NCBI GenBank assembly: GCA_040755515.1
Contig: JBFMAW010000023.1
Coordinates: 39,383 to 103,382, forward strand
From: Thermodesulfobacteriota bacterium
GTDB taxonomy: Bacteria; Desulfobacterota; Desulfarculia; Adiutricales; JAGVGV01
Length of the DNA stretch: 64,000 bases
Direction: 5' to 3'
This document shows, in pieces, positions 175 to 44,308 of the stretch. A model generated the notes under the pieces. It searched no databases, had not been told where the DNA came from, and was given only the letters and a program-made list of their open reading frames with translations. The position numbers and the translations under genes were made by a program. How positions within the stretch are numbered: position 1 is the first letter of the stretch; the number at the start of each line of letters is the position of its first letter.

Positions 175-1719
175 TCAATCACCGTCCAGCACGAGAATGA
201 AACAGCCGCCGCCTCCACCGCCCGATCCGCCTCCGCCGTTGCCGCCGGATTGACCGAAAATAGCCGTGACGGACTTGGATTCGCTTAGCACCACGGTGCA
301 AGCGCCGGTGCCGGAGCAAGCGTCCCGCCATCCCAGGAAAGTGGAACCGGCGTCGGGTGTGGCGGTCAAAACGACGACGGTGTTCTGGTCAAAACCCTGA
401 TGACAGGTCGGGCCGCAGTCAATACCGGCCGGGTTGCTTAGAACGCGGCCGCCGCCCGGACCTATTTTATAAACCACCAGCCCTACGGCGATCCGCTCGA
501 AGGAGCCGATGTCGCTGATAGCCACGCCGTCGCCGTCTCCGTCCCGGGGCCTGGTGGTCCCTCTTTGGTCGGCCAGGCCGGGCTGGACCGGATCGGCAGC
601 GTCCACGGCCGGGCTGCCCGTCAGGAGGGCGTGGGTCTGGGTCGGGCCGCCGTTGTCGGCCAGCGGGCCGAGTCTGGGATCAGGATCCACCAGGTCGCCG
701 GCCGTCAAGGTCACAACGCAGGAAGTTAAGTCGCCAATCAGGTTGTACCCGGCGCTGGTAAGCGTGCCGGCGCAGTCCGGTCCGTCAGGGCCGGCGTTCC
801 CGGCCAGGAGAGAACCCCGGGCCGTGATGGCGCCCGCGGCCCGCAGGCCGCCACCCCTGGTCGTGGTCGTATTGCCGGATACGGTGCAATGGGCCAGGTT
901 CACGTTGCCGCCGGCGGCGTTGTAGAGGCCTCCTCCGAAATTGGACGAGTTGCCGCTGATCGTGGAGTTGCTCAAGGTTAAAACGGGCGAGCCGGCGCCG
1001 TTGTATAATCCTCCACCTTGGGTCGCGGCCGTATTGCTGTTGAAGGTGCTGTTCTCGACGGTGGCCGAGGCCCCCCAGTCGTTATGTACGCCGCCGCCGT
1101 AATCGGCCGAGTTCCGGCTGAAGGTGCAGTCGGTGACGGACAGGGTGGCGTTAAGGCTGTTGTATACGCCGCCACCGGTATTAGTGGTAGTGTTGTCCGC
1201 GACCAGGCCTTCCCTCAAGGTCACCGAGCCGCCGGGATTATAGATGCCGCCGCCGAAATTGGCCGCGTTGGCGACCAGGCGGAAGCGGCTCAAGGCGAGG
1301 CTTCCGCTCACTAGGTAGAACCCGCCGCCCAGATTGGCGTTGCCGTTGGTGACGGACAGATCAGTGCAGTTGACCGCGGCGTTGCCGGCGATCTGGAAGA
1401 CTCCCTGGGTTCCGCCGCCGCTGACGGTCAATTGGTCCGCGCCCAGGCCGTTGATGGTCAGGTTCTTATCGATGACCAGGACGCCGGCGATCAAGGTAAT
1501 GGTTTGACCGGAAAGGGAGGAGTCAAAAACGATGGTGTCTCCGGCCGCGGCGTTGGCCACGGTCCAACGCAGGCAGCCCGGATCGGCCACGTTGTCCGTG
1601 GCTTTGGTCACGGTCCAGGTGGCGGCCCAGGAGGTCGAAGCCAGCAGGAGGCAGAAAAGAGGCAAGGCCAAAAAGAAGGCGGCCTGGAGACGCCTGGTGG
1701 AGAGACCCGCAATGATCAT
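175..1719 (-). CDS. Secreted right-handed parallel beta-helix repeat protein (Pmp/pectate-lyase-like GGGxYN repeats) with N-terminal signal peptide (RR-containing n-region, possibly Tat) and Gly-rich C-terminus
   Basis: 514-aa ORF. N-terminus MIIAGLSTRRLQAAFFLALPLFCLLLASTSWA/ATW looks like a signal peptide with an AXA cleavage site. There are more than 12 degenerate repeats of ~22 aa, N(T/S)xxxGGG(L/V/I)YN. Its start lies 4 nt downstream of the PAAR-like gene stop, indicating translational coupling. Confidence 0.65.
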   Translation of the reverse strand: MIIAGLSTRRLQAAFFLALPLFCLLLASTSWAATWTVTKATDNVADPGCLRWTVANAAAGDTIVFDSSLSGQTITLIAGVLVIDKNLTINGLGADQLTVSGGGTQGVFQIAGNAAVNCTDLSVTNGNANLGGGFYLVSGSLALSRFRLVANAANFGGGIYNPGGSVTLREGLVADNTTTNTGGGVYNSLNATLSVTDCTFSRNSADYGGGVHNDWGASATVENSTFNSNTAATQGGGLYNGAGSPVLTLSNSTISGNSSNFGGGLYNAAGGNVNLAHCTVSGNTTTTRGGGLRAAGAITARGSLLAGNAGPDGPDCAGTLTSAGYNLIGDLTSCVVTLTAGDLVDPDPRLGPLADNGGPTQTHALLTGSPAVDAADPVQPGLADQRGTTRPRDGDGDGVAISDIGSFERIAVGLVVYKIGPGGGRVLSNPAGIDCGPTCHQGFDQNTVVVLTATPDAGSTFLGWRDACSGTGACTVVLSESKSVTAIFGQSGGNGGGGSGGGGGGCFILVLDGD

Positions 1720-1723
1720 GTCG

Positions 1724-2131
1724 TCAGCTCAGCACCAGAACCTGGACCTGACTGGGCGCCAGGGCCACGCCGGGACAGTTCATGCTCTGGCCGTTCTGGC
1801 CGGTCGTGCCGGTCATTCTGACGGCCGGCGCTCCTCCCACCAGTACGGTGGCGCTGCCGATCAGGAACCTGGTCGGCCCCATGATCATGCCCGAGACCAC
1901 GCCCATCTGCACGCCGGCCTCATCGCCGTTGCTCAGGGGTATCTGGGACATCAGATTCAGGGCCGGCATGCCACTGACCAGGACCGTGCGGGCCGCGGTC
2001 GAGGGGTTGGCCGTGGCGTTCGTGGATATATTCGGATAGGGGACGGGCACGGGCGCGCCCGCCGCGGCCGGTGTGTTGCACACGTCCGGGAAGCCCAGGT
2101 TCATCCCGCCGGCCATGCACGACATGAACAT
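1724..2131 (-). CDS. DUF4150-family PAAR-like protein (T6SS spike-sharpening/tip protein)
   Basis: 135 aa, MFMSCMAGGMNLGFPDVCNTPAAAGAPVPVPYPNISTNATA...MIMGPTRFLIGSATVLVGG. This matches the DUF4150/PAAR-like pattern (GxPDVCxTP...PxPYPN), from memory of the family. It lies at the end of the vgrG operon. Confidence 0.7.
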   Translation of the reverse strand: MFMSCMAGGMNLGFPDVCNTPAAAGAPVPVPYPNISTNATANPSTAARTVLVSGMPALNLMSQIPLSNGDEAGVQMGVVSGMIMGPTRFLIGSATVLVGGAPAVRMTGTTGQNGQSMNCPGVALAPSQVQVLVLS

Positions 2132-2173: not shown

Positions 2174-2827
2174 TCAGCCCAGATGTATCTGCTCGGCCTC
2201 CACCTTAACATGTTTTTCAGACTTGATAATGGAATTCCTGGAGTGCATGATCATGGTTCCGTCCACCAGCCACCGCGTCGAGGCGGCTTGAACCTCTTCA
2301 TGCTCGGCCACATAGCGATACGAAGCAGTCAGCCGTTGAACGACTCTTCGGAAGACCAGGTCCAGCGACTGTCCGATCATCTTGACCCGTTCCACTTGAC
2401 CGTGCAGCATCCGGCCGATATAGGTGAATTTTTTAAACCGGGCCAGACCGAAGGCGGTATTGACCTCCAGAGACTCGGAGGCGGCGGTGAGTTTGTTGGC
2501 GGAAGACAGGGTCAAATCCTGAGCGGCGGTGAGCCGCAGGTCGTCCCGACCCTCGATATGCACCGGCCCGTCAAAGATTATTCGTCGTTCCGAGTCCGGA
2601 CCGCTTGCCCGTTCCAGCACGGCCAGGATGTGGCTTTCACCGGTCGGCGCCAAAGCCAAAAGGACCCGATCCCCTTTTTCCGGTTTCAAGAGGCAACTGG
2701 CGGCCTGAACGGCTTTGATCCGGCCGAAACCATTCTCCACCATGAATAGCCGCTCCACCTCGGACAATACCTGTCCGTATTCCAAGACAGGATGGGAGTC
2801 GGTCATCTTATAAGCCAGGTTCTCCAT
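2174..2827 (-). CDS. DUF3540-like protein, a conserved partner of the DUF2169/pentapeptide/DUF4150 modules in vgrG islands (function unknown)
   Basis: 217-aa ORF tightly packed between the pentapeptide-repeat gene (24-nt gap) and the PAAR-like gene (42-nt gap). Size and position match the DUF3540 member of this recurring gene set. The family assignment is from memory of the gene neighbourhood and is not a direct motif match. Confidence 0.5.
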   Translation of the reverse strand: MENLAYKMTDSHPVLEYGQVLSEVERLFMVENGFGRIKAVQAASCLLKPEKGDRVLLALAPTGESHILAVLERASGPDSERRIIFDGPVHIEGRDDLRLTAAQDLTLSSANKLTAASESLEVNTAFGLARFKKFTYIGRMLHGQVERVKMIGQSLDLVFRRVVQRLTASYRYVAEHEEVQAASTRWLVDGTMIMHSRNSIIKSEKHVKVEAEQIHLG

Positions 2828-2851: not shown

Positions 2852-3895
2852 TTACCAGTTTTCGGCTTCGGCCAGGTCCGGGTCAGTGCCCAGAGCAGCC
2901 TCGCGGTTGGCGCCCTCCCAATTGACGTGATCCATCAGGCTCCGGTGCAACTTGGTTCGATATAACCGGGCTGATCCGAAATCGGCCGCGGTCAGATCGG
3001 CGTGCGAGAAATCCGTATAGGCGCAGTTCGCGCCGATGAACAACGCTCCCTGGCAGAAGGCTCGCGTGAAGATGGCCTGCTCGATATCGGCCCTGGAGAA
3101 ATCAGCCCGCTTAAGCTTGCTTTTATCAAAGCAGGATTGATAAAGTCGGGCGTCCTTAAGGCTGGCCGCGGTCAGTGTGGTCTCGAGGAAGACGCTGCGT
3201 TTGCCTTTCACCGCGTCGAGCTTCGCCCCGGTCAGATCGGCGCCGGAAAAGTCGGATTGAGTGATATCCGCGCCGGTGAAGTCGCAGCCGGTGAAGTCCG
3301 CTCCACCGGCCTGGACCATGATGAATTCGGCGCCTCGGAAATCCTGTCCGGGCAGGCGACAATCCCGCAGAAAGGTCTTGTGCAATTTGCAGCCTTTGAG
3401 TCTGGCCCCGCTCAAGTCAGCTTCCATGAAGGTCGCCCTGGTCAGGTCCGCGCCGCTCAGATCCGCGTCAACCAAGGAAGCCTGGTAGAGTACCGTCCAG
3501 TTCAATACCGCTCCGGCCATGACGGCTTTATCCAGCCGGGCGTGATCCAATACGGCGCTGCTTAAGTCGGCCAGGGTAAGATCGGCGCCGGCCAGGTCCG
3601 CGCCGGTCAGGACCGCTTCGCGTAAAACCGCCTCTCGAAGAATGACCCCTTTGAGGTTCATCTTATGCCAGATGACTCCGGTCAGGTCCACTCCGGCCAT
3701 GATCGCCCCGAAGAGATCGCAGCCGGTAAAGCCGGTTCTTTGGATTTTGGCCACGGTGAAATTCACTTTTCTCAAGACCGTGTTCTCGAAGCGGCCGCCG
3801 GACAGGTCCGCGCCGGACAGATCGAGTCCGCTCAAGTCCACGTTCTCGATGGTGTCGTCGCGACGAATGGCGGCTAGGACTTCATCCCTGGTCAT
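2852..3895 (-). CDS. Pentapeptide-repeat protein
   Basis: 347 aa composed almost entirely of A(D/N)LxG / (S/T)GADL pentapeptide repeats (…VDLSGLDLSGADLSGGRFENTVLRKVNFT…ADLSGADLTRATFMEADLSGARL…). Start ATGA overlaps the stop of the upstream giant gene. Confidence 0.9.
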   Translation of the reverse strand: MTRDEVLAAIRRDDTIENVDLSGLDLSGADLSGGRFENTVLRKVNFTVAKIQRTGFTGCDLFGAIMAGVDLTGVIWHKMNLKGVILREAVLREAVLTGADLAGADLTLADLSSAVLDHARLDKAVMAGAVLNWTVLYQASLVDADLSGADLTRATFMEADLSGARLKGCKLHKTFLRDCRLPGQDFRGAEFIMVQAGGADFTGCDFTGADITQSDFSGADLTGAKLDAVKGKRSVFLETTLTAASLKDARLYQSCFDKSKLKRADFSRADIEQAIFTRAFCQGALFIGANCAYTDFSHADLTAADFGSARLYRTKLHRSLMDHVNWEGANREAALGTDPDLAEAENW

Positions 3896-6800
3896 GGCAG
3901 CAGGTCGGTCCGTTTATGCAGCTTGGTCATTTTAAGGTTGGCGCCATCGAGTTTGGTCCGGCCCAGCACGGACCGATGAAATTCAACGCCGTAAAGATTG
4001 GCGCCGGAAAAATCCGTGTCCACCAGTCTGGTCTTGCGCAGGGAACCATTTAAAAGGTTAATCCCCCGCAGGTCCCCCCCACTGAGGTCTGATTTGTTAA
4101 AGCTGGTCTGTTTGGCCTGGGTCCGGTTCAGGTTGGCTTGATGCAGGTCGCACTCCTCGATCAGGCTGCCTTCGAGGCGGGCGCCTCGGAAATCGGCCCG
4201 GTGCAACTCGGCCTGGCGCCAGCAGGCTTGGGACAAATCGGCGCCGGAGAAATCGGCGCCCGGCATCTCGGAGCCGCCGCCGATCCGGCTGTTGTGCATA
4301 TCCGTGTCGGTGAAATTGACTTCCCGGCCTTTCACCTGCCAGAAGAAGGCGGATCGGGCCTTCGCGCGGGAAAAGTCTGTCTTATCCAGTGCTGCTTCCG
4401 AAAAAAGCCCATGGCTTATATCCGCTCCGGCCAGGTTGGCCCCGGTAAGATCAGACGAGAGAAAGGAACCGCCATTGATTTTGGTATCATTCAGCCGGGC
4501 GTCTGACAGTTTCGCTCCTTCCAGAAGAGCACTTTCCATTTCGGCCCCTTGCAGATCGGCCGCGGTCAGGTCCGCGTTTTTCAGCAAGGCTTTCGTCATG
4601 GAAGAGCCGCTTAACACCGCTTTGGTAAACTTGGCTTGTTGAAAGAGCCCGCTGTCCAAACGGACGCCCTTTAACGAGGCCCCGGTGAAATCGGCCTCGT
4701 TGGCCACCGCCTCGGTCAGGTTGGCTCCATCGAGCTTTGAGCCGGCAAGGACGGTCTTTTCCAGAAAGGCTTCTTTTAAATCCAGGCCGGACAAGTCCAG
4801 GCCGGATAAATCGAGACCGGACAAGTTCTTGCCGGCCAGGCTTAGGCCTTGCTTATGGCGTTCGATCACATCTTCCCGGGTTAGAGGCTCCAGGTCATCC
4901 ACATCAATACCCGCTTTTTTAAGCTGTCCCAAGGCCCAGTCCGGGACGGGGGGCCGTGATTCGGCCTCGGCGATCCTGGCCATCCCGGCCTGGTATCTTT
5001 CCGCGGCCGCGCCGGTGACCCGCTTTATCTTGCCTTCGGCCTCGTCGAGTTTGGCCCAGACCTCGGGGTCTACCCGATCCACTTGTTTCAACTTTTCACG
5101 AGCCTGACCTAGGGAAGCGAGCATCGGCGCTGGGTCGAAAGGATTGTCGCCCAGGGCGACCTCTTTCCTGTCCAGGATCGTGTCCGGATTCAGGCCGGAT
5201 TTCCTGAGAGGTTCGTCGAATTTTTTCAGTTCCTGCTGGAAGTGGGCCTGCATCTCTTTTTTCATGGCCGCGATGTTTTCCAGCTCTGGTTTGAGGGCGG
5301 CGTCCACGCTGCCTCTTATTTTTTGATCCAGGGCTTGAACGTCAGGCAAGGGAAAATCTTGGGTGGCTTTTCTTTCTTGGCGCTCTTTTTCGATCAGGGC
5401 CAGTTCTTCCTCGATTTGGGTGGATAATTCCGGCGGGAGCGCGGCCAAAAGCCACGGTCTCAAGTCAAAACCGGTCCGGCGCGCCTCGAGCAGGTTCCGG
5501 CCCACGGGCAGGGGCAGGATTTTGGCTTGGGGATGAACATCGAGCCAGGCCGACAGTGTCTCGTCCACTTGTACTTCGGACCAGGCCGGCCCGGCGATCA
5601 GGAAAGCGCGGGCTGGCTCGATCAACTTGGCGGTTTCCTCGGCCGGCTTCCGGCTTGGATCCGGGGCCGCGATTATGGAGCAAAGGTCTGAAGCCTCTTG
5701 CCGGGCCAGCCAGGCCTCCAACTCGTCCGCCACCCGCAGGAAGACGTCAGGCCGTCGCGGGCTGATAAAGGTCAAAGCCAAGTCTTTCGATCCTTCGACC
5801 GGGAAATCAGTCCCGGCCTCGACCGCGTCACCGGTCCGGATAGTGATCCGGTCCAGGATGGCGCCGTCAAAATGAGGTATCACCAAGCCCGCCGGCAGGC
5901 GCTGATTCCTCGGCCGGCCCTGGTCGTCCCAGGCTTCTTTCAAACCCCAGGCGGATCGCGGTTCGGATAATTCCACCGGATTATAACCCAGCCAGGCCCG
6001 TCTGATGGTCTGGTGGGACAGGCCATGGGAGCGAAGTATTTTCATCAGTTCCTGGTTTTCCTGCAATCTCTGTCGGCAATCTTCCACGAAGCGGAAGCCT
6101 TGTTCCCGCCAGAGCTGATCCGGTTTAGGTTCGAAAAGCATGTCCGGTTCAAAACCCTCGGTCGGGATGCCTCTGGCTTCCAGTCGTTTCTTCTGCTCTT
6201 GGAAGGCCTTTTTAATTTCCTGTTGATGTTGAGTTATCTCGGCCTGGGCCTGGGCCACCTGGCCCGGAACTTCCTGAATGGCCGCGGCGGCCGCGGCCAG
6301 TTCACCCTGGGCCTCCTCGAGCATCGAGAGGTCTATTTTGATCAGGTGGCCGAATTCGGCCTTCAATTCAACGAGTCTCTTCCTGGCCTCGGCCAATCTA
6401 GTTGCCGCCTCGGTCATCTGCCCGGCGCCGCCGGCGGTCAGTTCCGATAAAGGCTGGGTGGAGGCCGGCGCCCGTCCCGCGGCCTCGGCCAAGGCCTCGT
6501 CGAGAAGTTGAGGTATTTTCTCCAGTTCGGCCCTGGCTGCCGCCAGCTCTTTTTCGGCCTGCTCCAAGGGGGTCATATCCACGGCCGGCACCGGCCATTT
6601 CATTCTTTCCTTTTCCAACTCGAGGTATTCTTCCAGGGTCCGGGGCGGGTCATGCAGTTTTTCCGTAAGCAGGAACAGCCGTCGGACGTCCGAGGCCTCG
6701 TCATCGGCCACTTCGGTCACGCCCCGGAAGATCAATACGCCCCGCCAGGCGTTGGGTAAGAGCCAGACCGTATCCAGGTTGGTCTTGACCTCCTTGAAGA

Positions 6801-7644
6801 CGGCGTCGGAAGGACTTCGCCTATCGTTCTTAAGTTGGGTGGCGAAACATTTCACCGCGACGCCGGGCAGGTGCGCCTTGATAAGGGGCCGGGCGTTGTT
6901 CATGTTTTCGATGAGCAGGGCTTCGTCGCCGCGCCAGAACCCGGTCAATCGTTGGTCCGGCGGCGCCGCGTTGAAAAAAGTATAGTCCATGTCCTCGGGG
7001 AAGTAAGGCCAGCGTTCCCTGAGCCATTTGGCGTCATATGTTCCCAGCTTACTCGATCTTTGCGGCCAGGTGATCTCGTACGGGCCGAAGCCGGCCGGAT
7101 TCGGCCGGTCCTCGGGCGAAGAGATCAAATGGCCGGGATCTTCCACGTTGGGCGCCAGGACCATAATTTCGCCCGAAGGCAGGCGGACGGGGTTGAGGCC
7201 CTTGCCCAGGGGGTTGCGCGGAAAGTCCGGACCGCCGAAAGCGTTGCGATAACCGACCTCGATGGCCTGAAACGGTTGGGGATCGCTCAGGGTCAGTAAA
7301 CCATTGGGACGGCGGCGCCAATGGCGACGGCCGAAGATGTAAAGACTCTTGTTGATGGGGCCGAGGCGCAAGGAAACTCTCAGGCCGGTAGTGGTCAGGC
7401 CGCCCGGAGCAAAGCACCGGCCCAGCATCAAAACTTCGCCTTGCGGCTTGGGCAGGCCTTGATCGAAGATGGTTTCCGCTCCCAGTTGGTCCTGAACGCA
7501 TGGCCATAGCTCCTGCTCCGGGAGCAGGTCGGCCGGCTCATTCAGATCGAAGAAGAGCAGGATCGAGACGGTCAGGTAGTATTTATCCGCCAGTCCGAAA
7601 TGATTGAGCAGCAGCGACTGGTCCTGTTCTTTTACCACTTCCAC
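3892..7644 (-). CDS. Giant DUF2169-domain protein fused to a coiled-coil linker and C-terminal pentapeptide-repeat domain
   Basis: 1250 aa. The N-terminal ~330 aa (…FPRNPLGKGLNPV…YDAKWLRERWPYFPEDMDYTFFNAAPPDQRL…) resembles DUF2169, a T6SS-associated adaptor-like domain. The middle ~550 aa is E/A/K/Q-rich with heptad character. The last ~340 aa are pentapeptide repeats (NLSGLDLSGLDLSGLDLKEAFL…ADLTAADLQGAEM…). Confidence 0.8.
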   Translation of the reverse strand: MEVVKEQDQSLLLNHFGLADKYYLTVSILLFFDLNEPADLLPEQELWPCVQDQLGAETIFDQGLPKPQGEVLMLGRCFAPGGLTTTGLRVSLRLGPINKSLYIFGRRHWRRRPNGLLTLSDPQPFQAIEVGYRNAFGGPDFPRNPLGKGLNPVRLPSGEIMVLAPNVEDPGHLISSPEDRPNPAGFGPYEITWPQRSSKLGTYDAKWLRERWPYFPEDMDYTFFNAAPPDQRLTGFWRGDEALLIENMNNARPLIKAHLPGVAVKCFATQLKNDRRSPSDAVFKEVKTNLDTVWLLPNAWRGVLIFRGVTEVADDEASDVRRLFLLTEKLHDPPRTLEEYLELEKERMKWPVPAVDMTPLEQAEKELAAARAELEKIPQLLDEALAEAAGRAPASTQPLSELTAGGAGQMTEAATRLAEARKRLVELKAEFGHLIKIDLSMLEEAQGELAAAAAAIQEVPGQVAQAQAEITQHQQEIKKAFQEQKKRLEARGIPTEGFEPDMLFEPKPDQLWREQGFRFVEDCRQRLQENQELMKILRSHGLSHQTIRRAWLGYNPVELSEPRSAWGLKEAWDDQGRPRNQRLPAGLVIPHFDGAILDRITIRTGDAVEAGTDFPVEGSKDLALTFISPRRPDVFLRVADELEAWLARQEASDLCSIIAAPDPSRKPAEETAKLIEPARAFLIAGPAWSEVQVDETLSAWLDVHPQAKILPLPVGRNLLEARRTGFDLRPWLLAALPPELSTQIEEELALIEKERQERKATQDFPLPDVQALDQKIRGSVDAALKPELENIAAMKKEMQAHFQQELKKFDEPLRKSGLNPDTILDRKEVALGDNPFDPAPMLASLGQAREKLKQVDRVDPEVWAKLDEAEGKIKRVTGAAAERYQAGMARIAEAESRPPVPDWALGQLKKAGIDVDDLEPLTREDVIERHKQGLSLAGKNLSGLDLSGLDLSGLDLKEAFLEKTVLAGSKLDGANLTEAVANEADFTGASLKGVRLDSGLFQQAKFTKAVLSGSSMTKALLKNADLTAADLQGAEMESALLEGAKLSDARLNDTKINGGSFLSSDLTGANLAGADISHGLFSEAALDKTDFSRAKARSAFFWQVKGREVNFTDTDMHNSRIGGGSEMPGADFSGADLSQACWRQAELHRADFRGARLEGSLIEECDLHQANLNRTQAKQTSFNKSDLSGGDLRGINLLNGSLRKTRLVDTDFSGANLYGVEFHRSVLGRTKLDGANLKMTKLHKRTDLLP

Positions 7645-7707
7645 GTTTATCGCCCTCCAAGGCCGATGCGCCGGGCCTCGTTGGTGATGGTGAAGAAGGC
7701 CTTGACT

Positions 7708-10700
7708 TCAACCAAGAATCACATTTCCCTTCAGGCAGGCTATTCTGAAATCAAACAAAGCCATATCGGTCTTATCGATGGCTGTCTTGTTTTGTCTGAT
7801 ATCGAGTTCGTTTTGATCAATCCTTTGATTGGTTCGCCGGATCGCGGTGGTGATTCTCCCGACGCGTGTGTTGAAGTCTTCCAGGCGTTGTTGGTGCATC
7901 CTCACGACCCGCTGGCCGAGTTCGATGTCTCTTTCAGCGGTATCCACACGTTCATTGGTAATTCTAATGTGTCTCCGAATGGCCCTGATTTGATTGGTGA
8001 AGACTCGAACATCTTGTTGGCCGGCCGTTATGGACTGTTCATGTGCCAAAACCATGTGGTTGGTGGCTTGCAAGTGGGTCTGCCAGGCGTTAATTCTATT
8101 GTCAATCGCCTCGATCTTTTTGTCCGAAGCGTTGAAGTGGCCGTTCTGCCACTCGTTGTGCCAGGCCAGGCTTCCTTCGAACTCGACGCCGATATGTATC
8201 TCCGAAGCCAGGCCGACCGTGAAGTAGCTCTCCCAGCCGCCGACGTACTGCATTTCTTCGCCATAGACCTTCCTGCTTTCCCCGGCTTCGATCTCCCAGT
8301 CGGCGAAAGAGCCGACCAGGCCCCGAAAGGCGCCCACGGTATGCATCTGAATTCCGTGTTTCCCTTCGCCGCCTTCGCCCTTCTCACCCTTTTCGCCCTT
8401 TTCGCCTTTTTCCCCTTTTTCGCCCGTAGCGCCGGTGGCGCCAGTGGGACCCCGGGCGCCCGTGGGTCCGATCGCGCCGGTGGCGCCTTTAGGTCCCAGA
8501 GGTCCGACCGGGCCGGTGGCGCCCTTTTCACCCTTCAGATCAACATAGGTGTAGTCAGCCTCATCAGACGTCTTCACTCCCAGGCGGGTGCCGTCCCATT
8601 TGTATTCAAAGTTGGCCCCGCGGTCGCCCTGATCGCCTTTGGCGCCCGGCGCCCCCGGCACTCCAGGCAGTCCTTGTTGACCGCGGTCGCCCTGGTCGCC
8701 CTTTGCTCCGGTTGCTCCACTGGCGCCGGTCGCACCGGTCGCACCGGTGGCGCCGGCGGGACCGGTTGGTCCAGCCGGTCCTGGAATACCCGGAGGGCCT
8801 GGCGGCCCTGGTTCGCCTTTTGCTCCGGCCTCGCCCTTTTCACCCGTGGGTCCGGTAGGCCCGGTCGCGCCGGCGGGGCCGGTTGGTCCTACGGCTCCGG
8901 CCGGTCCGGGAATACCCGGGGGTCCGATCGGTCCGGCTTCACCTTTTGCTCCGGCCTCGCCCTTTTCACCCGCGGGTCCGGTAGGCCCGGTCGCGCCGGC
9001 GGGGCCGGTTGGTCCTACGGCTCCGGCCGGTCCGGGAATGCCCGGAGGTCCGATCGGTCCGGCTTCGCCCTTGTCACCGCGGTCGCCCTTTTCGCCCAAC
9101 GGTCCTTGCGGTCCCGCTGGCCCCTGAGGTCCCGGAGGCCCCTGCGGCCCGGGGGGGCCTGGAGGTCCGGGCGGGCCGGGTTCTCCGTCTCCGGTGGGTG
9201 GGTCGTTGGGCGCGCCGATGCGAATCCAGGAGTTGGCCGTGGGCGACAACAGCACGATCCTTTGGCTGCCAGCCGCGTCTTCGATGTGTATCTTGTTCTG
9301 TCCGGCCGTGGTGATGATGTTCATGGTGCTGTTGTCGGCCGTGACCGGGCTGGGATACTCGGGGTTCGGCACCGCTCCGGTGATGATCGGCCGATCCGGG
9401 TCTCCCTCGATGAAGGTCAAAAGCACTTCCGTTCCTTTGTGCAGGGGGAAGTGCAGGCCGTGGTCCGAACCTCCGTAAGGTTGCATCATGCGCAGATAAG
9501 TCGAGGCCTTGCCGTCCTTCCGGCCCGAAAGATCAAAAGGCAGGACCACCTTATACCGGCCGTATTCGTCCAGTTCGGCGTATTCGCCGCTCGCGGCCGC
9601 GTCCACCACGGCGTTGATCACTCCGTAGAACCTTGGTTTTTCGCTGGCCAATTCGGCCCGGAACTGGGCCTGGGCCGGAATGGCCACAAACGAGTTGCGG
9701 TAATAGAGCTGCTGTTCTCGCTCGCTCAGAGCGCGCTTGAGGCCGTCTATCATGTACGCCGTCTGAGTGCCTTCATGCTCCATCTTGATGGTCAGGTACT
9801 TCTGATTGAAGTTTTCCTGATAATGATCCTGTAGCTCGAAGGTGTATCCTGGTCGGAGATAGGGCACCGCGCTCTCGCCGTAAAATTCGCGTTCCCGGCA
9901 GAGATAGGCTTCGGCTCGAACCTGGGCCAGCGTGTCGCCCTCTTCCGGGGTGAGGAAATGGTCGCCGTAAACGTAGATCTGCCCTCGGCCTTCAGGCAGG
10001 ATTCCGGCCCGGCCGGTCAGTTCGAGAGATGGCGTCAGGTAATTGTAATCCTTGAGCAGAACCTCTTGGGGCAGCATATGCTGGCGGCAGACATAAGATT
10101 GGATGACTTCCCGCATATGTCCGGCTTCCAAGCCGGAAGGGGGGGAATAGTAAAGAGTTCGACCTTGAGGCATGTCGGTGTGGGCGATGCCCGTATCGGT
10201 GATGATGACCTTTTCGGCGCCGGAGTCCTGTTCGAAGTAGTAATAGAGCCCTTGATGTTCGAGCCAGCGGGAGACGAAGTTCAGATGGCTTTCCCGGTAC
10301 TGGCTGACATATTCGAGTGATTGATAGGTCTTGGTGGTCTTTATCTCGAAATCCCGGGAAGTCAAGCCGCCGTCCTTGAGGACTTCGACTATTATGTCCG
10401 GCAGGTTCATCTTGAGGAATATCTGGTTATGGAAGGTCAGGGAGAGCCACCAGAGCCTGGGCGCCAGCACGGCCCGGTAAAAGACGTATTCGCCGAAGGC
10501 CTGCCGTTGTTCAAACCGGCTGAGAATGCCGTGAAAGGGCACGTCGCCTTCTTCGCGCCGGATGATGAAGGTGGCCGGCTTTTGTATTATCCGGCCCAGG
10601 TCCAGGTCCCGGCGGTCCGAGACCAGGTCAATCTCGAAGTGGTAGCACTGATTCAAGCCTTCGCTGCCTTTGAAGCTGACCACGTCAAAGGCGTCGGTCG

Positions 10701-10749
10701 GCAGGGCCTGGGAGACAAAGGCGAATTTTTCTTCGGTGATGAACCTCAT
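7708..10749 (-). CDS. vgrG: T6SS spike protein VgrG with long collagen-like (Gly-X-Y) triple-helix extension, a globular C-terminal domain and a terminal coiled coil
   Basis: 1013 aa. Classic VgrG gp27/gp5 core (…[48 protein letters not shown]…). About 230 aa of uninterrupted GXY repeats follow ([25 protein letters not shown]…). Then a ~35-aa non-collagen spacer, a second GXY block ending in (GEK)5, a ~130-aa globular region, and a ~100-aa heptad-like C-terminus. Confidence 0.9.
8695..9072. repeat. Tandem 126-bp (42-aa, 14 GXY triplets) direct repeats inside the vgrG collagen-like region: two near-identical units at 8821-8946 and 8947-9072, plus a more diverged third copy upstream
   Basis: The string tgctccggcctcgcccttttcaccc… recurs at 8821 and 8947. 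The two units differ at only a handful of positions, and the encoded peptide …[32 protein letters not shown](A/T)[11 protein letters not shown]… is duplicated. A 9-bp (cccttttcg)n microsatellite encoding (GEK)5 lies at ~8385-8432. Confidence 0.8.
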
Positions 10750-10952: not shown

Positions 10953-13469
10953 TCAGAAATCAACGTCCTGGCGGAAGACCGGCCTCAGAACGACGGTCAG
11001 GTCGGGGCCCAGGTTCCGGCCGGTGAAAAGAAGGCGGTAATAATACATTTCGCCTAAGATCTTTTTAACGTAAAGGCGGGTCTGATCGAAGGGTATCTGC
11101 TCGATGAATTCCTCGATGGTCGTTTCGCCGGCCTGCTCCACCCAGCGTTTGACGTTGAAAGGACCGGCGTTGTAGGCGGCCAGGGCCAGGGGGTATTGGC
11201 CGTCGAATTCCTTGATCAAGGCGGCCAGGTACCACGCGCCGAAGCGGATGTTGTTTTCCGGCGAAAAAAGGTCGGCCGGGTGCGGTTCGGCCCGGCCGAG
11301 GTGGGCCGCGATCTTACGTCCCGTGGAAGGCAGGATTTGCATCAGCCCACGGGCGTTGGCCCAGGACAGGATTTCCGGCTGGTAAAACGATTCCGTGCGC
11401 ATCATTGCCAGCAGCAAGGCCGGGTGCAGATGGAATTCATCGGCCGCTTTCAAGACCGGACCGGGATAGGCCAGGGGATAGAAGCGCCGCCGCGCCTTGA
11501 TCTGGTCCTCGGGGGAGCGGTTCTGGACCAGAAGCCGGAAGTAACTGTATTGGAGGCGGACAAAACCGTCATAATCGCCGACGTGAGCCAGGTAGGCGCT
11601 GCTGAAAGCCAGCAGCCTCAACTCCAGATCACCGGCCGCCGAAGAAGGGGACAGGCCCTGTCTCTTGATCAAGGACCGGACGGCTTCGGCCTCGAGATGC
11701 AGCAGGTCCACGGCTCCGGCCGCGGCCAAGTTTCTCAGCCGAGTCAGGGCCTGATTCAACACCGGCCCGGCGGCCGGTTGATCCGGGAGGCTTTCGATCC
11801 GGCGGCGTTCGACGCTCAATTCGCCCAGGCCCAGTCCAGGATCGCTCAAAGCCCAGACCGCCTGTCCGGCTGATCGGGTCTGGTGGTAGCGGAGGGGCAG
11901 GAAGGAATTGTCCAGACCCGGCTGATCCGAAATGAGCAATCTCCGGAAAATAGGCAGGTCCGGCCAATGGTCCTTGTTCCTGATCAGCCCGAGGCGTTCA
12001 TTCGCCCGCTGCCGGTAGTAGAATTCGGTCTGATCGGCCGCCAGAGGCTGGTAATAACCGGCCGCTTGGGCCTTCAGCCCGGCCTGTTCCAGGGAGCGGC
12101 CCAGCCAGTAAGAAGCGCCGGCGGCGTACCGGCTGCCGGGTTGTTCCTTGAGCAGGGCCTTGAATTGTTCGGCCGCCGCCTGATAGCTCCTCTTTCGGAA
12201 ATAAAAGAGGCCCCGCTGCCAGGGCAGGGCGTCCTTGTATTGTCCCTGGAGGCCCCCAGCGCTGATTCGTTTCCAGGCTTCTTCGGTCTGGTCCGGCTGA
12301 TCCAGTCTAAGCCGGACCAGCCCGGTCTGGAACCAGGCCTCGTCGGCCAGGGCCGAAGGTTGGATCGCTTCGGCCACGATCCGGTAGGCCTCCGCGGCCT
12401 TCTGCCATTGGCCCAGTCTTTCCCAACAGCGGGCGTAGGTCATGGCCGCGCCGGGGTTGGCTCTGACCGTGGCTGGCGCTCCATACGACTGGAAATAGAC
12501 GAGCGCTTCCTTGACTTGGCCGCTAAAATACAAGAGCCAGGCCTTTTCCGCGGCCAGACCGCCTCGAAAGCCTGGAGTCCCGCCTTGTCTGGACAGGCGT
12601 TCGATCAAGGCCAGAGCTTCTTCCAGGCGCCATTCCCGTCGCAGAAACCTGACCAGTTCCAATTTGCGGTCTTCGCTTCCGGGAACTTCCTGGGCCGGAG
12701 CCAGCAATTGGTGATATTTCCGGGCCGCTTCGGCCCGGATCGGTCTCTGGTTACTGGCTTCCATGGCCTGGCGGTAGTATTCCCGGGCCCGGGCTTCTTC
12801 GTTCCGGGCTTCGAAGATTCGGGCCAAGGCCAGCCTGGCTTCACCTCGGCGGTCCAAAGGCAGCAGGGCTTTGAATTCCCTGATGGCCTCCTCTGAGCGG
12901 CCTTCGTGGAACCAAGTTTCGGCTTTGAGCAGTCTGGCTTGGTCAGACCAAATTCCGGCGGGATCAGCCTTGAGATAATCTGAAATAAGGAGTCTGGCTT
13001 CGGGGTAACGGCCGGCCAGGTAGCAGGCTTGTCCGCGGAAATAGAGTCCGTAGCCGGCCAGGCTGGCCGGCATGGCTTCCCGACCGGACAGCCATCCGTC
13101 GGCCGCGTCGGCCAGACCGAGCTTGAGGGCCGTCAGGGCGGCCAAAAAGCCGGCCAGTTGTTTCTGCCGGACGGTGAGATCACCGGAGAGTATCTCGCTC
13201 AGGAGGCCCAGGGTCTCTTCATAATGGCCGTCCGTGTACAGTTCCACGGCCCGGTTATAATCGGACCAGTCCGCTTTCCTGATGGACGCTTGCTTTTTCT
13301 CCGGAGCGGCCGGAGTGATACGTTCCGTCTTGGTTTCTAGGGCCGTCGCGTCTCTGATTTGAAGTCGGACTGGCTGGCCCGGTTCACTCGCCCGGCAGGA
13401 TATGGCCGCCAGGCACACCAGCAAAACAGCGAACCAAGCCGCTGGACGCATCAGCCGGAACTCCAGCAC
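10953..13469 (-). CDS. slt: Soluble lytic murein transglycosylase (Slt70-like): signal peptide, TPR/superhelical N-domain, C-terminal SLT domain
   Basis: 838 aa with an N-terminal signal peptide (MLEFRLMRPAAWFAVLLVCLAAISCRA). The C-terminus carries SLT catalytic signatures …LLLAMMRTESFYQPEILSWANARGLMQILPSTG…FSPENNIRFGAWYLAALIKEF…AAYNAGP…. Confidence 0.85.
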   Translation of the reverse strand: MLEFRLMRPAAWFAVLLVCLAAISCRASEPGQPVRLQIRDATALETKTERITPAAPEKKQASIRKADWSDYNRAVELYTDGHYEETLGLLSEILSGDLTVRQKQLAGFLAALTALKLGLADAADGWLSGREAMPASLAGYGLYFRGQACYLAGRYPEARLLISDYLKADPAGIWSDQARLLKAETWFHEGRSEEAIREFKALLPLDRRGEARLALARIFEARNEEARAREYYRQAMEASNQRPIRAEAARKYHQLLAPAQEVPGSEDRKLELVRFLRREWRLEEALALIERLSRQGGTPGFRGGLAAEKAWLLYFSGQVKEALVYFQSYGAPATVRANPGAAMTYARCWERLGQWQKAAEAYRIVAEAIQPSALADEAWFQTGLVRLRLDQPDQTEEAWKRISAGGLQGQYKDALPWQRGLFYFRKRSYQAAAEQFKALLKEQPGSRYAAGASYWLGRSLEQAGLKAQAAGYYQPLAADQTEFYYRQRANERLGLIRNKDHWPDLPIFRRLLISDQPGLDNSFLPLRYHQTRSAGQAVWALSDPGLGLGELSVERRRIESLPDQPAAGPVLNQALTRLRNLAAAGAVDLLHLEAEAVRSLIKRQGLSPSSAAGDLELRLLAFSSAYLAHVGDYDGFVRLQYSYFRLLVQNRSPEDQIKARRRFYPLAYPGPVLKAADEFHLHPALLLAMMRTESFYQPEILSWANARGLMQILPSTGRKIAAHLGRAEPHPADLFSPENNIRFGAWYLAALIKEFDGQYPLALAAYNAGPFNVKRWVEQAGETTIEEFIEQIPFDQTRLYVKKILGEMYYYRLLFTGRNLGPDLTVVLRPVFRQDVDF

Positions 13470-15599: not shown

Positions 15600-16628
15600 T
15601 CAGTACGCCTCCTCCGAGCTAAGGTCCTTCTCCTTCACCTTTCCGCTGAATAAAATGTTGACCCAGACCTGGTAAGCGATGACCACGGGCACGAAGATCA
15701 AGGCCAGGACCAGCATTATGGTCAAGGTCAGCGAACTGGAGGCGGCGCCGGCCACGGTCACGCTGAACTTAGGGTCCAGGGTCGAGGGCAGCATATAGGG
15801 ATAAAGGCCGACCACTCCGAAAAAGGTCACGCCGATAATGGCCAGGGCCGAGCTGGCCCAGGCCAGCCAGTAGTTCCGCCGGATCAGTAGATGTTTGATG
15901 CCGGCCAGACCGGCCACCGCGATCACGATTATCAAGAACAAGGCCGGATGGGCCAGATAAATATCGTACAGTCGGGTGGACCAGGCGCTGGCGGCCAGGC
16001 AGAGGACGGCCGCGGCCAGCAGCACCGGCCAGAGTTGATGGGCCAGCTTGACCGCTGAGTCGTGAAGGTCTCCCTCCGTCTTGACGGCCAACATAATGGC
16101 GCCGTGGACCAGAAAGAGAAGCAGGAACAGCACGCCGCCCAAAAGACCGTAGGGATTGAGCAAGGTCAGCAGGTTGCCCTGGAACACGCCCTGGCCGTCA
16201 AGGGGCAGCCCGCGGAAGATGTTGGCGAAGGCCACGCCGAGGAGCACGGCCGGAATCAGGCTGCCCAGGAAGACTCCCCAGTCCCATATTTTCTTCCATT
16301 TTTCATCTTCGATCTGGTGGCGGAACTCGAAGGAGACGCCCCGGAAGATCAAGGCAAAGAGCAGTATCATCAAAGGAGTGTAGAAGGCGCTGAACATGAC
16401 CGCGTACATTTTAGGGAAGGCGGCGAAGGTCACCCCGCCGGCGGTCAGCAGCCAGACTTCGTTGCCGTCCCAGAGAGGGCCTATCACGTTATACATGATC
16501 CTTTTTTTTCCTTCGTCCCGGCCCAGGAAGGGTGACAGGACGCCGATGCCCAGGTCATAGCCGTCGGTGATGAAATAAACGGCCCACAAAAGGCCCCACA
16601 ACAAGAACCAGACCGTGGCCAAATCCAT
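15600..16628 (-). CDS. cydB: Cytochrome bd ubiquinol oxidase subunit II
   Basis: MDLATVWFLLWGLLWAVYFITDGYDLGIGVLSPFLGRDE…WDGNEVWLL… conserved CydB N-terminus; polytopic membrane protein. Confidence 0.9.
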   Translation of the reverse strand: MDLATVWFLLWGLLWAVYFITDGYDLGIGVLSPFLGRDEGKKRIMYNVIGPLWDGNEVWLLTAGGVTFAAFPKMYAVMFSAFYTPLMILLFALIFRGVSFEFRHQIEDEKWKKIWDWGVFLGSLIPAVLLGVAFANIFRGLPLDGQGVFQGNLLTLLNPYGLLGGVLFLLLFLVHGAIMLAVKTEGDLHDSAVKLAHQLWPVLLAAAVLCLAASAWSTRLYDIYLAHPALFLIIVIAVAGLAGIKHLLIRRNYWLAWASSALAIIGVTFFGVVGLYPYMLPSTLDPKFSVTVAGAASSSLTLTIMLVLALIFVPVVIAYQVWVNILFSGKVKEKDLSSEEAY

Positions 16629-16662
16629 TTCTCAACCTCCTTGTTTCAACCGACCCGTCGGT

Positions 16663-17967
16663 TCAGGCCGATTCCGGCGCCTTGGCGGCGATCCTGGCCA
16701 TGAGCGCGAAAGTCGTCACGGATAAAAAGGAATAGACCAGGAAAAAGGCGATCAGGGACGCACCGCCCTGGACGGCGGTTATGGGCGAGAAGGCGTCGGC
16801 CGTCTTCATGACCCGGTAGACGATCCAGGGTTGGCGTCCGACTTCGGCCAAAATCCAACCCAGTTCGCAGGCCAGATAGGGCAGAGGGAGCGACCAGACC
16901 ATGAGCTTGAGATAGGTCGGCTTTTCGGTCAGCCTGTTTCTGAACAGAAAACCGAGAGCGGTCATCAGCACGAACCAACCACCCAGGGCGACCATGGTCC
17001 GGAAGGAGAGAAAGCTGATCAGGACCGGCGGGCGCTCCTCGGCCGGGAAGTCCCTCAATCCCTTGACTTCGGCCCCGGGATCGTGAAAGGCCAGCAGGCT
17101 CAGAAAGCCGGGCAGACGGCCGATGGCCACGCTGTTGGCGGCCTTGGCCTCGTCCGGCCAGGCGAACAGATAAATAGGCGCGCCTTTGGACGTCTCCCAG
17201 TGGGTTTCCATGGCCGCCAGCTTGGTCGGCTGGGTCTGGGCCAGGTCGCTGCCGTGTAGATGGCCTTCCACCACTATAAAAAAGGAAAAAATCAGCCCCA
17301 AGACCAGTCCGATCCGGAAGGAACGGCTGAAAAAGTCAACCCGGCGGCCTTTGAGGAGATGATAGGCGCTGACGCCCATGACGAAGAAGGCCGATAGGAT
17401 ATAGGCCGCGCTTATGGTGTGCAGGATCATCAGCAGGGCGAACTTATTGGTCAGGACGGCGACGAAATCAACGAGTTCGGCCCGGCCGTTCCTGATGGCA
17501 TAGCCCACGGGGTGCTGCATCCAGGAGTTGGCGGTCAATATCCAGATCGCGCTGCCGGTCGAAGCGAAGGCCACCAGCCACATGACCACGGCGTGTGCCT
17601 TGGCCGAGATGCGTCGCCAGCCGAAAATCCATACGCCCAGCAAGGTCGATTCCAGGAAAAAGAAGCCCAAGGCCTCGATGGCCAGCAGGGACCCGAAAAT
17701 ATCGCCCACGAAGGCCGAATAACGCGACCAGTTGGTGCCGAACTGAAACTCCAGGGTTATACCCGAAACCACGCCCATGGCGAAATTGATGAGGAAAATC
17801 TTGCCCCAGAACCTGGCCATCTCGAGATAGACTTTTTCGTTGGTCCGGACGTATTGGGTTTCCATCACCGCCACCAGAACCGACAGGCCCAGGGTCAGGG
17901 GCACGAATAAGAAATGAATAAAGGTGGCGAAAGCGAACTGAAGCCTGGACAACATTAAGACATCCAT
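16663..17967 (-). CDS. cydA: Cytochrome bd ubiquinol oxidase subunit I
   Basis: …LSRLQFAFATFIHFLFVPLTLGL…ETQYVRT…FWGKIFLINFAMGVVSGITLEFQFGTNWS… conserved CydA N-terminus. Confidence 0.9.
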   Translation of the reverse strand: MDVLMLSRLQFAFATFIHFLFVPLTLGLSVLVAVMETQYVRTNEKVYLEMARFWGKIFLINFAMGVVSGITLEFQFGTNWSRYSAFVGDIFGSLLAIEALGFFFLESTLLGVWIFGWRRISAKAHAVVMWLVAFASTGSAIWILTANSWMQHPVGYAIRNGRAELVDFVAVLTNKFALLMILHTISAAYILSAFFVMGVSAYHLLKGRRVDFFSRSFRIGLVLGLIFSFFIVVEGHLHGSDLAQTQPTKLAAMETHWETSKGAPIYLFAWPDEAKAANSVAIGRLPGFLSLLAFHDPGAEVKGLRDFPAEERPPVLISFLSFRTMVALGGWFVLMTALGFLFRNRLTEKPTYLKLMVWSLPLPYLACELGWILAEVGRQPWIVYRVMKTADAFSPITAVQGGASLIAFFLVYSFLSVTTFALMARIAAKAPESA

Positions 17968-44068: not shown

Positions 44069-44308
44069 ATGGCGGCGGATGATATTAAAGTGGATGAGGG
44101 ATTGTGCGCTGGTTGCCTTCGCTGCGCGCTGGCCTGTTCGAGTCTGTACACCGGGGAGTACAACGCGGAGCTGGGTCGGATTCGCGTCGAGGCTGACGGC
44201 GTTCAGATGAAGGTTTGGTTTACCGAAGAATGCCCGAACTGCGGTCATTGCGTCGGTTTCTGCTTTTACGGCGCCTTGAGCCAGGTCGGGCCCGAGACTC
44301 GGTCATGA
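44069..44308 (+). CDS. Small ferredoxin-like 4Fe-4S protein, probable electron acceptor/partner of the downstream AOR
   Basis: CAGCLRCALAC… and …CPNCGHCVGFC Cys motifs; the stop overlaps the AOR start (ATGA). Confidence 0.6.
   Translation: MAADDIKVDEGLCAGCLRCALACSSLYTGEYNAELGRIRVEADGVQMKVWFTEECPNCGHCVGFCFYGALSQVGPETRS

Follow-up and report, generated by a model that had tools for sequence, protein, structure and literature searches.

A VgrG protein with collagen-like blocks in the T6SS spike position of a Tvp cassette from a Thermodesulfobacteriota bacterium

The window analysed here, 64,000 nucleotides of contig JBFMAW010000023.1 from a Thermodesulfobacteriota bacterium, contains a vgrG (tssI) gene of the T6SS (type VI secretion system) whose product has long collagen-like blocks, followed by four accessory genes of a Tvp-type cassette. 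The gene is located at positions 7708..10749 of the reverse strand and forms an intact open reading frame (ORF) of 1013 codons plus stop. Its product possesses a gp27-like hub domain (residues 30-329, 9763..10662; Pfam Phage_GPD, E 3.4e-78), a gp5-like OB fold (residues 411-459, 9373..9519; Pfam Phage_base_V, E 1.1e-8) and a short gp5-like beta-helix stub of 62 residues (460-521, 9187..9372), all on the same strand. The stub has a weak T6SS_Vgr match and strands at residues 476-512 in the AlphaFold2 (AF2) model, and is conserved throughout the relatives (occupancy about 1.0). The needle motif named in the original prediction corresponds to residues 448-462. Two NCBIfam VgrG models cover residues 14-500 above their cut-offs, TIGR03361 with 353.9 bits (cut-off 186.35) and TIGR01646 with 289.5 bits (cut-off 121.8). 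The full-length AF2 model, a monomer built with 93 relatives in the alignment, reaches pLDDT values mostly >90 over the first ~520 residues. The best match of this core in the Protein Data Bank (PDB) by Foldseek is Pseudomonas aeruginosa VgrG1 (4mtk; E 8.7e-46, rmsd 2.9 Å over 508 columns, TM-score 0.70 normalised to the target), and 7q5p and 4uhv match as well. According to family scores and predicted fold the protein is VgrG/TssI, as originally predicted.

The most conspicuous feature of this VgrG begins directly behind the stub. Collagen-like block 1 (residues 522-713, 8611..9186, reverse strand; Pfam Collagen, E 1.4e-37) consists of 64 uninterrupted Gly-X-Y (GXY) triplets, i.e. 192 residues, with 23% proline and many charged triplets; 64 consecutive glycines in register cannot be chance. 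A 26-residue interruption with beta strands (residues 714-739, 8533..8610, reverse strand) separates it from collagen-like block 2 (residues 740-796, 8362..8532, reverse strand), which comprises 19 triplets according to the count of in-phase glycines, contains 9-nt tandem repeats and ends in (GEK)5 followed by GEG GEG. Both blocks together amount to 83 triplets or 249 GXY residues. The spacer and the (GEK)5-ended second block had been recognised correctly beforehand, and the uninterrupted stalk is real, but block 1 measures 192 residues instead of the ~230 given. In the monomeric AF2 model the GXY blocks are unstructured (pLDDT ~30), as expected for a single chain.

The interruption forms three short strands in the AF2 model (715-718, 722-726 and 734-737) and is 52-59% identical to a unit of phage tail fibres (tblastn, E down to 1e-7). 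Units of this type are repeated about six times in the tail fibre of Clostridioides phage phiCD111 and are present also in the tail fibre of Vibrio phage ICP2; Pfam has no family for the 26-residue spacer or its phage repeat. Because the interruption matches this phage unit, we infer that the collagen segment probably originates from a collagen module of the phage-tail-fibre type. The collagen-coding part of vgrG is overlapped on the opposite strand by an antisense ORF of 744 codons (7600-9834, forward). This ORF is not a gene, as the GC-rich GXY repeat keeps frames open on both strands.

The distal part of the protein, residues 797-1013, consists of two segments. The first is a beta module (residues 797-873, 8131..8361, reverse strand) with an 8-residue periodicity of the VxG type, visible in alignments of the relatives as the pattern ...KNExILGExxxxVxGxxxxxVxGxxxDxxxG..., and with AF2 strands at 799-803, 823-828 and 831-835. 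Indels among relatives within this module are exactly 8 residues long, and at the level of sequence such a periodicity with 8-residue indels marks beta-helix repeats of the gp5/VgrG type and not a jelly-roll. The second segment (residues 874-1013, 7711..8130, reverse strand) contains 20 unbroken heptads over ~140 residues without any phase break, is a predicted coiled coil and terminates in the tail ...KGNVILG. Heptad position 6 is almost always occupied by I, L or V, and the periodicity power is 117 at 3.5 residues versus <=13 at the other periods tested (the 7-residue harmonic aside). In an AF2 model of the distal module by itself, residues 874-1012 form a helix with pLDDT >90; in the full-length prediction the helices span 882-1012. 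The heptads probably form a three-stranded parallel coiled coil. A hydrophobic C-terminal tail (last six residues) is found in 74 of 94 clade members, versus 11/94 in a control window.

Comparison with relatives assigns the collagen to a defined position in the protein. The 120 closest relatives listed were found through the N-terminal core and are VgrGs of metagenome-assembled genomes (MAGs) of Thermodesulfobacteriota/"Deltaproteobacteria"; most have about 740-780 residues and align, at 57-66% identity, with no more than the first ~51% of the query. When the last 217 residues serve as query, a word-indexed homology search yields no match, and exhaustive HMMER searching of 1.84 billion representatives yields just six weak ones, apparently driven by the heptads. 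Such single-sequence searches are blind to this fast-evolving module, and its homology is recovered only via the C-termini of relatives found by their core. The C-terminus of the closest relative P0001 (769 residues, collagen-free) is collinear with residues 3-215 of the 217-residue query in a local search (E 4e-27), and a two-round iterated profile of the distal module matches 96 of the 120 relatives. In the full-length MAFFT alignment of the query with the 93 relatives sharing the distal module, relatives fill query residues 1-520 and about 800-1013, and almost none of 521-796. Gly799 is invariant in all 94 sequences. From this glycine, with which the beta module starts, to the C-terminus the query has 215 residues, exactly the median of the relatives (range 179-243). 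The linker from the ...GAPNDP motif to the invariant glycine, in contrast, comprises 281 residues in the query versus 9-61 (median 20) in the 93 relatives, none of which has collagen. Because of this difference in linker length, the collagen expands or replaces, as judged from the alignment, a linker that is short and variable in this VgrG clade, and residues 797-1013 are the ordinary distal module of the Thermodesulfobacteriota VgrG clade.

The distal module varies within the clade. Over the C-terminal ~130 residues of P0004, P0043, P0028 and P0002, the Gly-free heptads of the query are replaced by heptads with one glycine per repeat (GEVTKLx) or by GNxTxVx repeats, the latter matching LbR_Ice_bind, a beta-roll family. 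Across the clade, the repeat chemistry of the module seems to change between coiled-coil-like and beta-roll-like.

The original prediction placed a globular domain of ~130 residues behind the collagen, tentatively a trimeric C1q/TNF-like head as in Bacillus BclA, with which the tip of the T6SS would bind receptors or adhere. A collagen-like part followed by a non-collagen C-terminus does resemble BclA and phage fibres, and BclA (1wck) was matched with E 0.044, but through the collagen part only. The non-helical region behind the collagen measures about 77-85 residues (797-873/881), is too short for a C1q/TNF jelly-roll, a domain of about 120-140 residues, and has no compact fold in AF2. Instead of the jelly-roll that AlphaFold was to look for, the prediction shows a long helix together with a segment that is unfolded or has short strands. 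The heptads of the C-terminus exist as described, but extend over about 140 residues instead of ~100. Searched against Pfam at E<=10, residues 797-1013 match coiled-coil families only, with no C1q (PF00386), TNF (PF00229) or other globular family. Searches of the PDB by sequence, profile and fold retrieve nothing significant for the same residues, nor does their AF2 model have a significant PDB neighbour: the beta-module profile has insignificant matches to trimeric-autotransporter-like proteins (E 0.5-1.3), and the whole region weakly resembles the P22 gp26 tail needle and stalk fragments of trimeric autotransporter adhesins (E 0.046-0.5, not significant). Furthermore, VgrGs without collagen have a homologous distal module. 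The model of a C1q-type adhesin is largely refuted, and such a head at the spike tip is extremely improbable.

Block 1 contains a tandem duplication of a 126-bp unit encoding 14 triplets (residues 561-602 and 603-644, 8818..9069, reverse strand; Tandem Repeats Finder period 126, 2.6 copies). The two copies differ in 4 of 126 nucleotides (97% identical), with three synonymous and one non-synonymous codon, and a third, diverged and older copy lies after the two recent ones. As read from these copies, the recent duplication of the unit shows the stalk to be changing in length by tandem duplication of 14-triplet units.

Only one other collagen-bearing VgrG is present among the 120 closest relatives listed. 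P0038 (L003, 4073-7054), from the candidate division CSSED10-310, has 14 triplets at the same junction, and its locus has a DUF2169 gene adjacent to vgrG as well as DUF3540 and PAAR-like genes upstream. The collagen of P0038 is followed by a beta-rich domain of ~420 residues without family, shared by the collagen-free P0076, P0114 and P0120. Among 14 VgrG-like ORFs checked, including those of loci L002 and L003, collagen occurs only in P0038, and a scan of 185,579 species genomes with exact octapeptide patterns detected no further collagen-bearing VgrG. A DNA pattern for the junction (CCC-AAY-GAY-CC, 1-31 nt, then 9 in-phase GG) was found at 46 loci in 241 million metagenome records; the inspected ones are of low complexity and none has a VgrG-like ORF, a negative that applies to this motif and codon choice. 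A junction query of 76 VgrG and 56 collagen residues says nothing as a census, because short collagen proteins dominate its matches. The literature searched contains no description of a VgrG with a collagen triple helix. These censuses, although incomplete, indicate that the fusion of VgrG with collagen is rare, in accordance with the earlier assessment of it as unusual.

One alternative is an assembly artefact, in which a fragment of a phage collagen-like tail fibre was mis-joined into vgrG or the repeats were assembled in a wrong copy number. The spacer is indeed phage-tail-fibre-like, short reads can mis-count copies that are 97% identical, GC3 and glycine codon usage of the collagen part differ somewhat from the remainder of vgrG, and the exact protein has no record elsewhere (identical copies of the VgrG, PAAR-like or DUF3540 protein, when searched for, occur on no other contig). 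However, the frame is continuous over both junctions, and the parts on either side belong to a clade-specific VgrG of normal module lengths, which a random chimera would not restore. P0038 independently has collagen at the same junction, and an error in copy number would shift the length by about 14 triplets and cannot create the feature. We consider an artefact very improbable.

The four accessory genes are all located downstream of vgrG on the same strand, and all five genes are intact. Directly downstream is a tvpAB-like gene (3892..7644, 1250 residues) encoding DUF2169 (residues 22-307, E 2.6e-82) and a C-terminal pentapeptide-repeat domain (E 1.8e-49) that extends to residue ~1240. It is followed by genes for a TvpB-like pentapeptide-repeat protein (2852..3895, 347 residues; Pfam Pentapeptide, E 4.4e-62), a TvpC-like DUF3540 protein (2174..2827, 217 residues; Pfam DUF3540 over the full length, E 6.1e-55) and a PAAR-like tip protein of the DUF4150 ('PIPY') type containing the motif PVPYP (1724..2131, 135 residues; Pfam Tox-PAAR-like, E 1.3e-35). 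By its gene content the cassette is a complete Class III Tvp system of synteny type C. Class III Tvp, with the proteins TvpAB, TvpB, TvpC and Paar1, was defined in Serratia marcescens (Monlezun, Earl and Coulthurst, EMBO J 2026, PMC13373197), and synteny type C denotes the same gene set (Sachar et al., JBC 2025, PMC11883445). In S. marcescens, the only species for which this is known, TvpC, a mimic of the OB fold and beta-prism of VgrG, pre-assembles with the PAAR-like protein, TvpAB and TvpB, and is then displaced by VgrG (PMC13373197). This Tvp/PAAR-like context points to a role in spike-tip assembly rather than to an adhesin.

Between DUF2169 and the pentapeptide repeats, the TvpAB-like protein has a stretch of about 600 residues (~308-917) that is rich in Ala, Glu, Lys and Gln, helical by eye and without family. 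The length of TvpAB is 1250 residues in the query cassette, 1233 residues in that of P0001, where the VgrG tail is of the same heptad type, and 901 residues in the neighbouring cassette of the P0001 contig, which has another tail; the helical region may co-vary with the distal module of VgrG. The C-terminal ends of VgrG (...NVILG) and TvpC (...QIHLG) were considered as equivalent PAAR-docking strands, a candidate that was rejected, as the heptad phase reaches the last VgrG residue and AF2 predicts a helix there; the likeness is a weak hint.

T6SS core genes (TssA-M, Hcp) are absent among the ORFs scanned in the 64-kb window, and the vgrG locus is an orphan vgrG island. P0001 possesses the same cassette in a tandem array adjoining TssJ and TssK. 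Its contig (L002, 1-22310) contains two complete VgrG-TvpAB-TvpB-TvpC-PAAR-like cassettes in tandem and two further long VgrGs (1032 and 1041 residues) with unrelated C-terminal domains, all next to TssJ and TssK.

The isolated position of the cassette also bears on the question of function. If the insertion inactivated the spike, the gene could be a decaying orphan allele, transient in an island that lacks T6SS core genes. The very rare occurrence of the feature and a length that is geometrically hard to reconcile with the apparatus fit this explanation. On the other hand, T6SS genomes commonly have orphan vgrG islands distant from the core cluster, the 1013-codon ORF and all four accessory genes are intact, and the duplicated units differ mostly synonymously. 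A non-functional allele is quite improbable.

The collagen is probably a trimeric length extender inserted into the T6SS spike of the Class III Tvp cassette. The VgrGs of this clade share a plan of gp27-like hub, OB fold, beta-helix stub, short variable linker and a distal module of ~215 residues (8-periodic beta repeats, about 20 heptads and a hydrophobic C-terminal tail), and in the query allele the linker is replaced by the 281 residues of 64 GXY triplets, three-strand interruption and 19 GXY triplets. The obligate parallel VgrG trimer on the N-terminal side and a parallel three-chain coiled coil on the C-terminal side would hold the collagen chains in register. Parallel registered chains are the condition for the folding of bacterial and phage collagens, and a triple helix is expected because the three chains are held in this way at both ends. 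The GXY blocks should fold along the spike axis and would act as a rigid or semi-rigid extender. This supports the fibrous extension of the VgrG axis by three-chain segments of collagen and coiled-coil type that had been proposed in the original prediction.

The rise per residue is 0.286 nm in collagen, 0.148 nm in coiled coils and about 0.06 nm in gp5-type beta-helices. With these values block 1 would measure about 55 nm and block 2 about 16 nm, so that collagen would add ~70 nm, with a further 20 nm or so from the coiled coil and about 4-5 nm from the beta module. The total beyond the stub, interruption included, would be roughly 100 nm. Because this is several times the thickness of the Gram-negative envelope, we infer that the collagen acts as a length extender and not as a stalk for a new head, the insert having come without a new binding head. 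The beta-helix in front of the collagen is a stub of just 62 residues, the 77-residue 8-periodic module lies distally and the cassette includes a PAAR-like gene. By analogy with the S. marcescens model, TvpAB, TvpB, TvpC and the PAAR-like protein would assemble a tip cap, possibly docking on the conserved hydrophobic C-terminal tail of VgrG, as some hints suggest. The extra reach may serve for thick prey envelopes, capsules or larger target cells.

Alternatively, the GXY blocks could be a flexible tether that gives freedom or reach after firing to a payload, with the distal beta/coiled-coil module and its hydrophobic tail acting, for example, on membranes. S. marcescens VgrG1, of the same Tvp class, has been reported to make membranes lose their potential although it lacks a separate effector domain (PMC13373197). 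The linker of 9-61 residues is apparently unstructured in all relatives, so that the distal module appears tethered rather than stacked; the C-terminal tail is conserved and hydrophobic, and the three-strand interruption could serve as a hinge. Against a tether stand the 64 unbroken triplets with 23% proline and many charges between two trimerising elements, for which a triple helix is expected; bacterial collagens such as Scl2 fold as triple helices. A flexible tether is fairly unlikely.

Several points weigh against collagen as an extender. Triple helix, trimeric coiled coil and a beta-prism at 797-873 are all deduced, the AF2 models being of the monomer only, and the beta module has low pLDDT and lacks a significant PDB match. 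The 126-bp repeat is near-identical and its copy number is that of the assembly. Because the window lacks core genes, use of this spike by a T6SS rests on homology and on the context of the relatives. Above all, an axial rod of ~100 nm does not obviously fit into baseplate and membrane complex. The S. marcescens tip of 242 Å (24 nm) is thought to intrude into the membrane complex and was already problematic to its authors (PMC13373197). The collagen may not be a straight rod in the resting machine, or the allele may work differently. It is rather unlikely that the protein forms the longest T6SS spike tip known by far (~100 nm versus 8-24 nm for described VgrG-PAAR tips), too long for the baseplate and membrane complex and, if functional, indicative of an unrecognised mode of T6SS assembly or use. 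If so, the fibre could be threaded through the envelope or protrude from it before firing, as a contact sensor or tether, or repeat expansion could tune the reach of the spike to the thickness of prey envelope, capsule or sheath.

Other genes surround the cassette. A 514-codon ORF (175-1719, reverse strand) begins 4 nt past the PAAR-like stop codon and may be co-transcribed with the vgrG-tvp operon; its product starts with a sequence resembling a signal peptide and contains Gly/Asn-rich beta-helix repeats of the Pmp type, a choice-of-anchor Q domain (NF041518) and a Flg_new_2 domain, and at its C-terminus a poly-Gly stretch precedes CFILVLDGD. The product may be an effector, a surface protein or unrelated to the cassette. 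Directly upstream of vgrG, ~200 bp away on the same strand, is a gene for an 838-residue lytic transglycosylase with TPR and SLT domains (10953-13469), which could be a housekeeping enzyme (Slt70-like) or be tied to the insertion of a secretion machine through peptidoglycan. Cytochrome bd oxidase subunits (15600-17967, reverse strand) and an aldehyde:ferredoxin oxidoreductase (44215-46161, forward strand) fit an anaerobic or microaerophilic host.

The lengthening of a spike by additional beta-prism has been described only recently, and a collagen triple helix in a T6SS spike is new to the literature searched. The allele would be a natural experiment on the axial length tolerated by baseplate and membrane complex, would show delivery of a Tvp/PAAR-like cap to a distant tip and would represent an exchange of modules between T6SS spikes and the tail fibres of phages, with 14-triplet duplications as a simple means to tune spike reach. 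Its import is tempered by the rarity of the allele, by a triple helix and a function that are proposals, and by the failure of the eye-catching claim of a C1q head.

C-terminal extensions of VgrG carry toxins or adaptor-binding domains. 'Evolved' VgrGs with tropomyosin-like and YadA-like extensions were reportedly listed by Pukatzki and colleagues in 2007, and they share with the query a VgrG core followed by fibrous, non-enzymatic trimeric elements; a collagen triple helix is not known among them and does not appear in the literature searched. Bacillus BclA and C1q/TNF-headed fibres likewise have a collagen-like triple helix and a C-terminal non-collagen trimerising region, but BclA ends in a jelly-roll of roughly 130 residues, whereas the query has about 77 residues of beta repeats and a long helix. 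The phage tail fibres of phiCD111/phiCD38-2 and Vibrio ICP2 share with it the unit of 26-30 residues, xFxWDGTxLGVxxxxxxxYxYxDLKGxKG, flanked by GXY triplets. They differ in having about six copies with few triplets between them, BppU-type N-termini and no VgrG core.

VgrG1 of S. marcescens Db10 (Class III Tvp) belongs to the same type of five-gene cassette with a small PAAR-like protein without toxin domain, and its spike is likewise lengthened by a C-terminal extension that is non-enzymatic. Long beta-prisms are a tendency of Class III VgrGs, and that of S. marcescens VgrG1 measures 186 Å (PMC13373197). Its extension is a continuous beta-prism, in contrast to the collagen-expanded linker, beta module and 140 residues of heptads of the query, whose estimated extension of about 100 nm would be roughly five times longer and whose PAAR-capped tip would not be a plain beta-prism end. 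By design, the closest analogue is the extension of Tal, the tail-associated lysin or distal tail hub of siphophages. Tal proteins of streptococcal and lactococcal siphophages have a gp27/VgrG-like hub followed by small beta domains of three strands and by collagen-like linkers that vary in length (Goulet et al. 2022, PMC9437275). As in the query, a gp27-like trimeric hub extends C-terminally as a collagen-linked fibre with three-strand beta domains. Tal extensions have carbohydrate- or receptor-binding modules, of which Pfam detects none in the query VgrG, and Tal is part of a phage tail, whereas the query is a T6SS VgrG (TIGR03361) with a Tvp cassette outside any prophage context.

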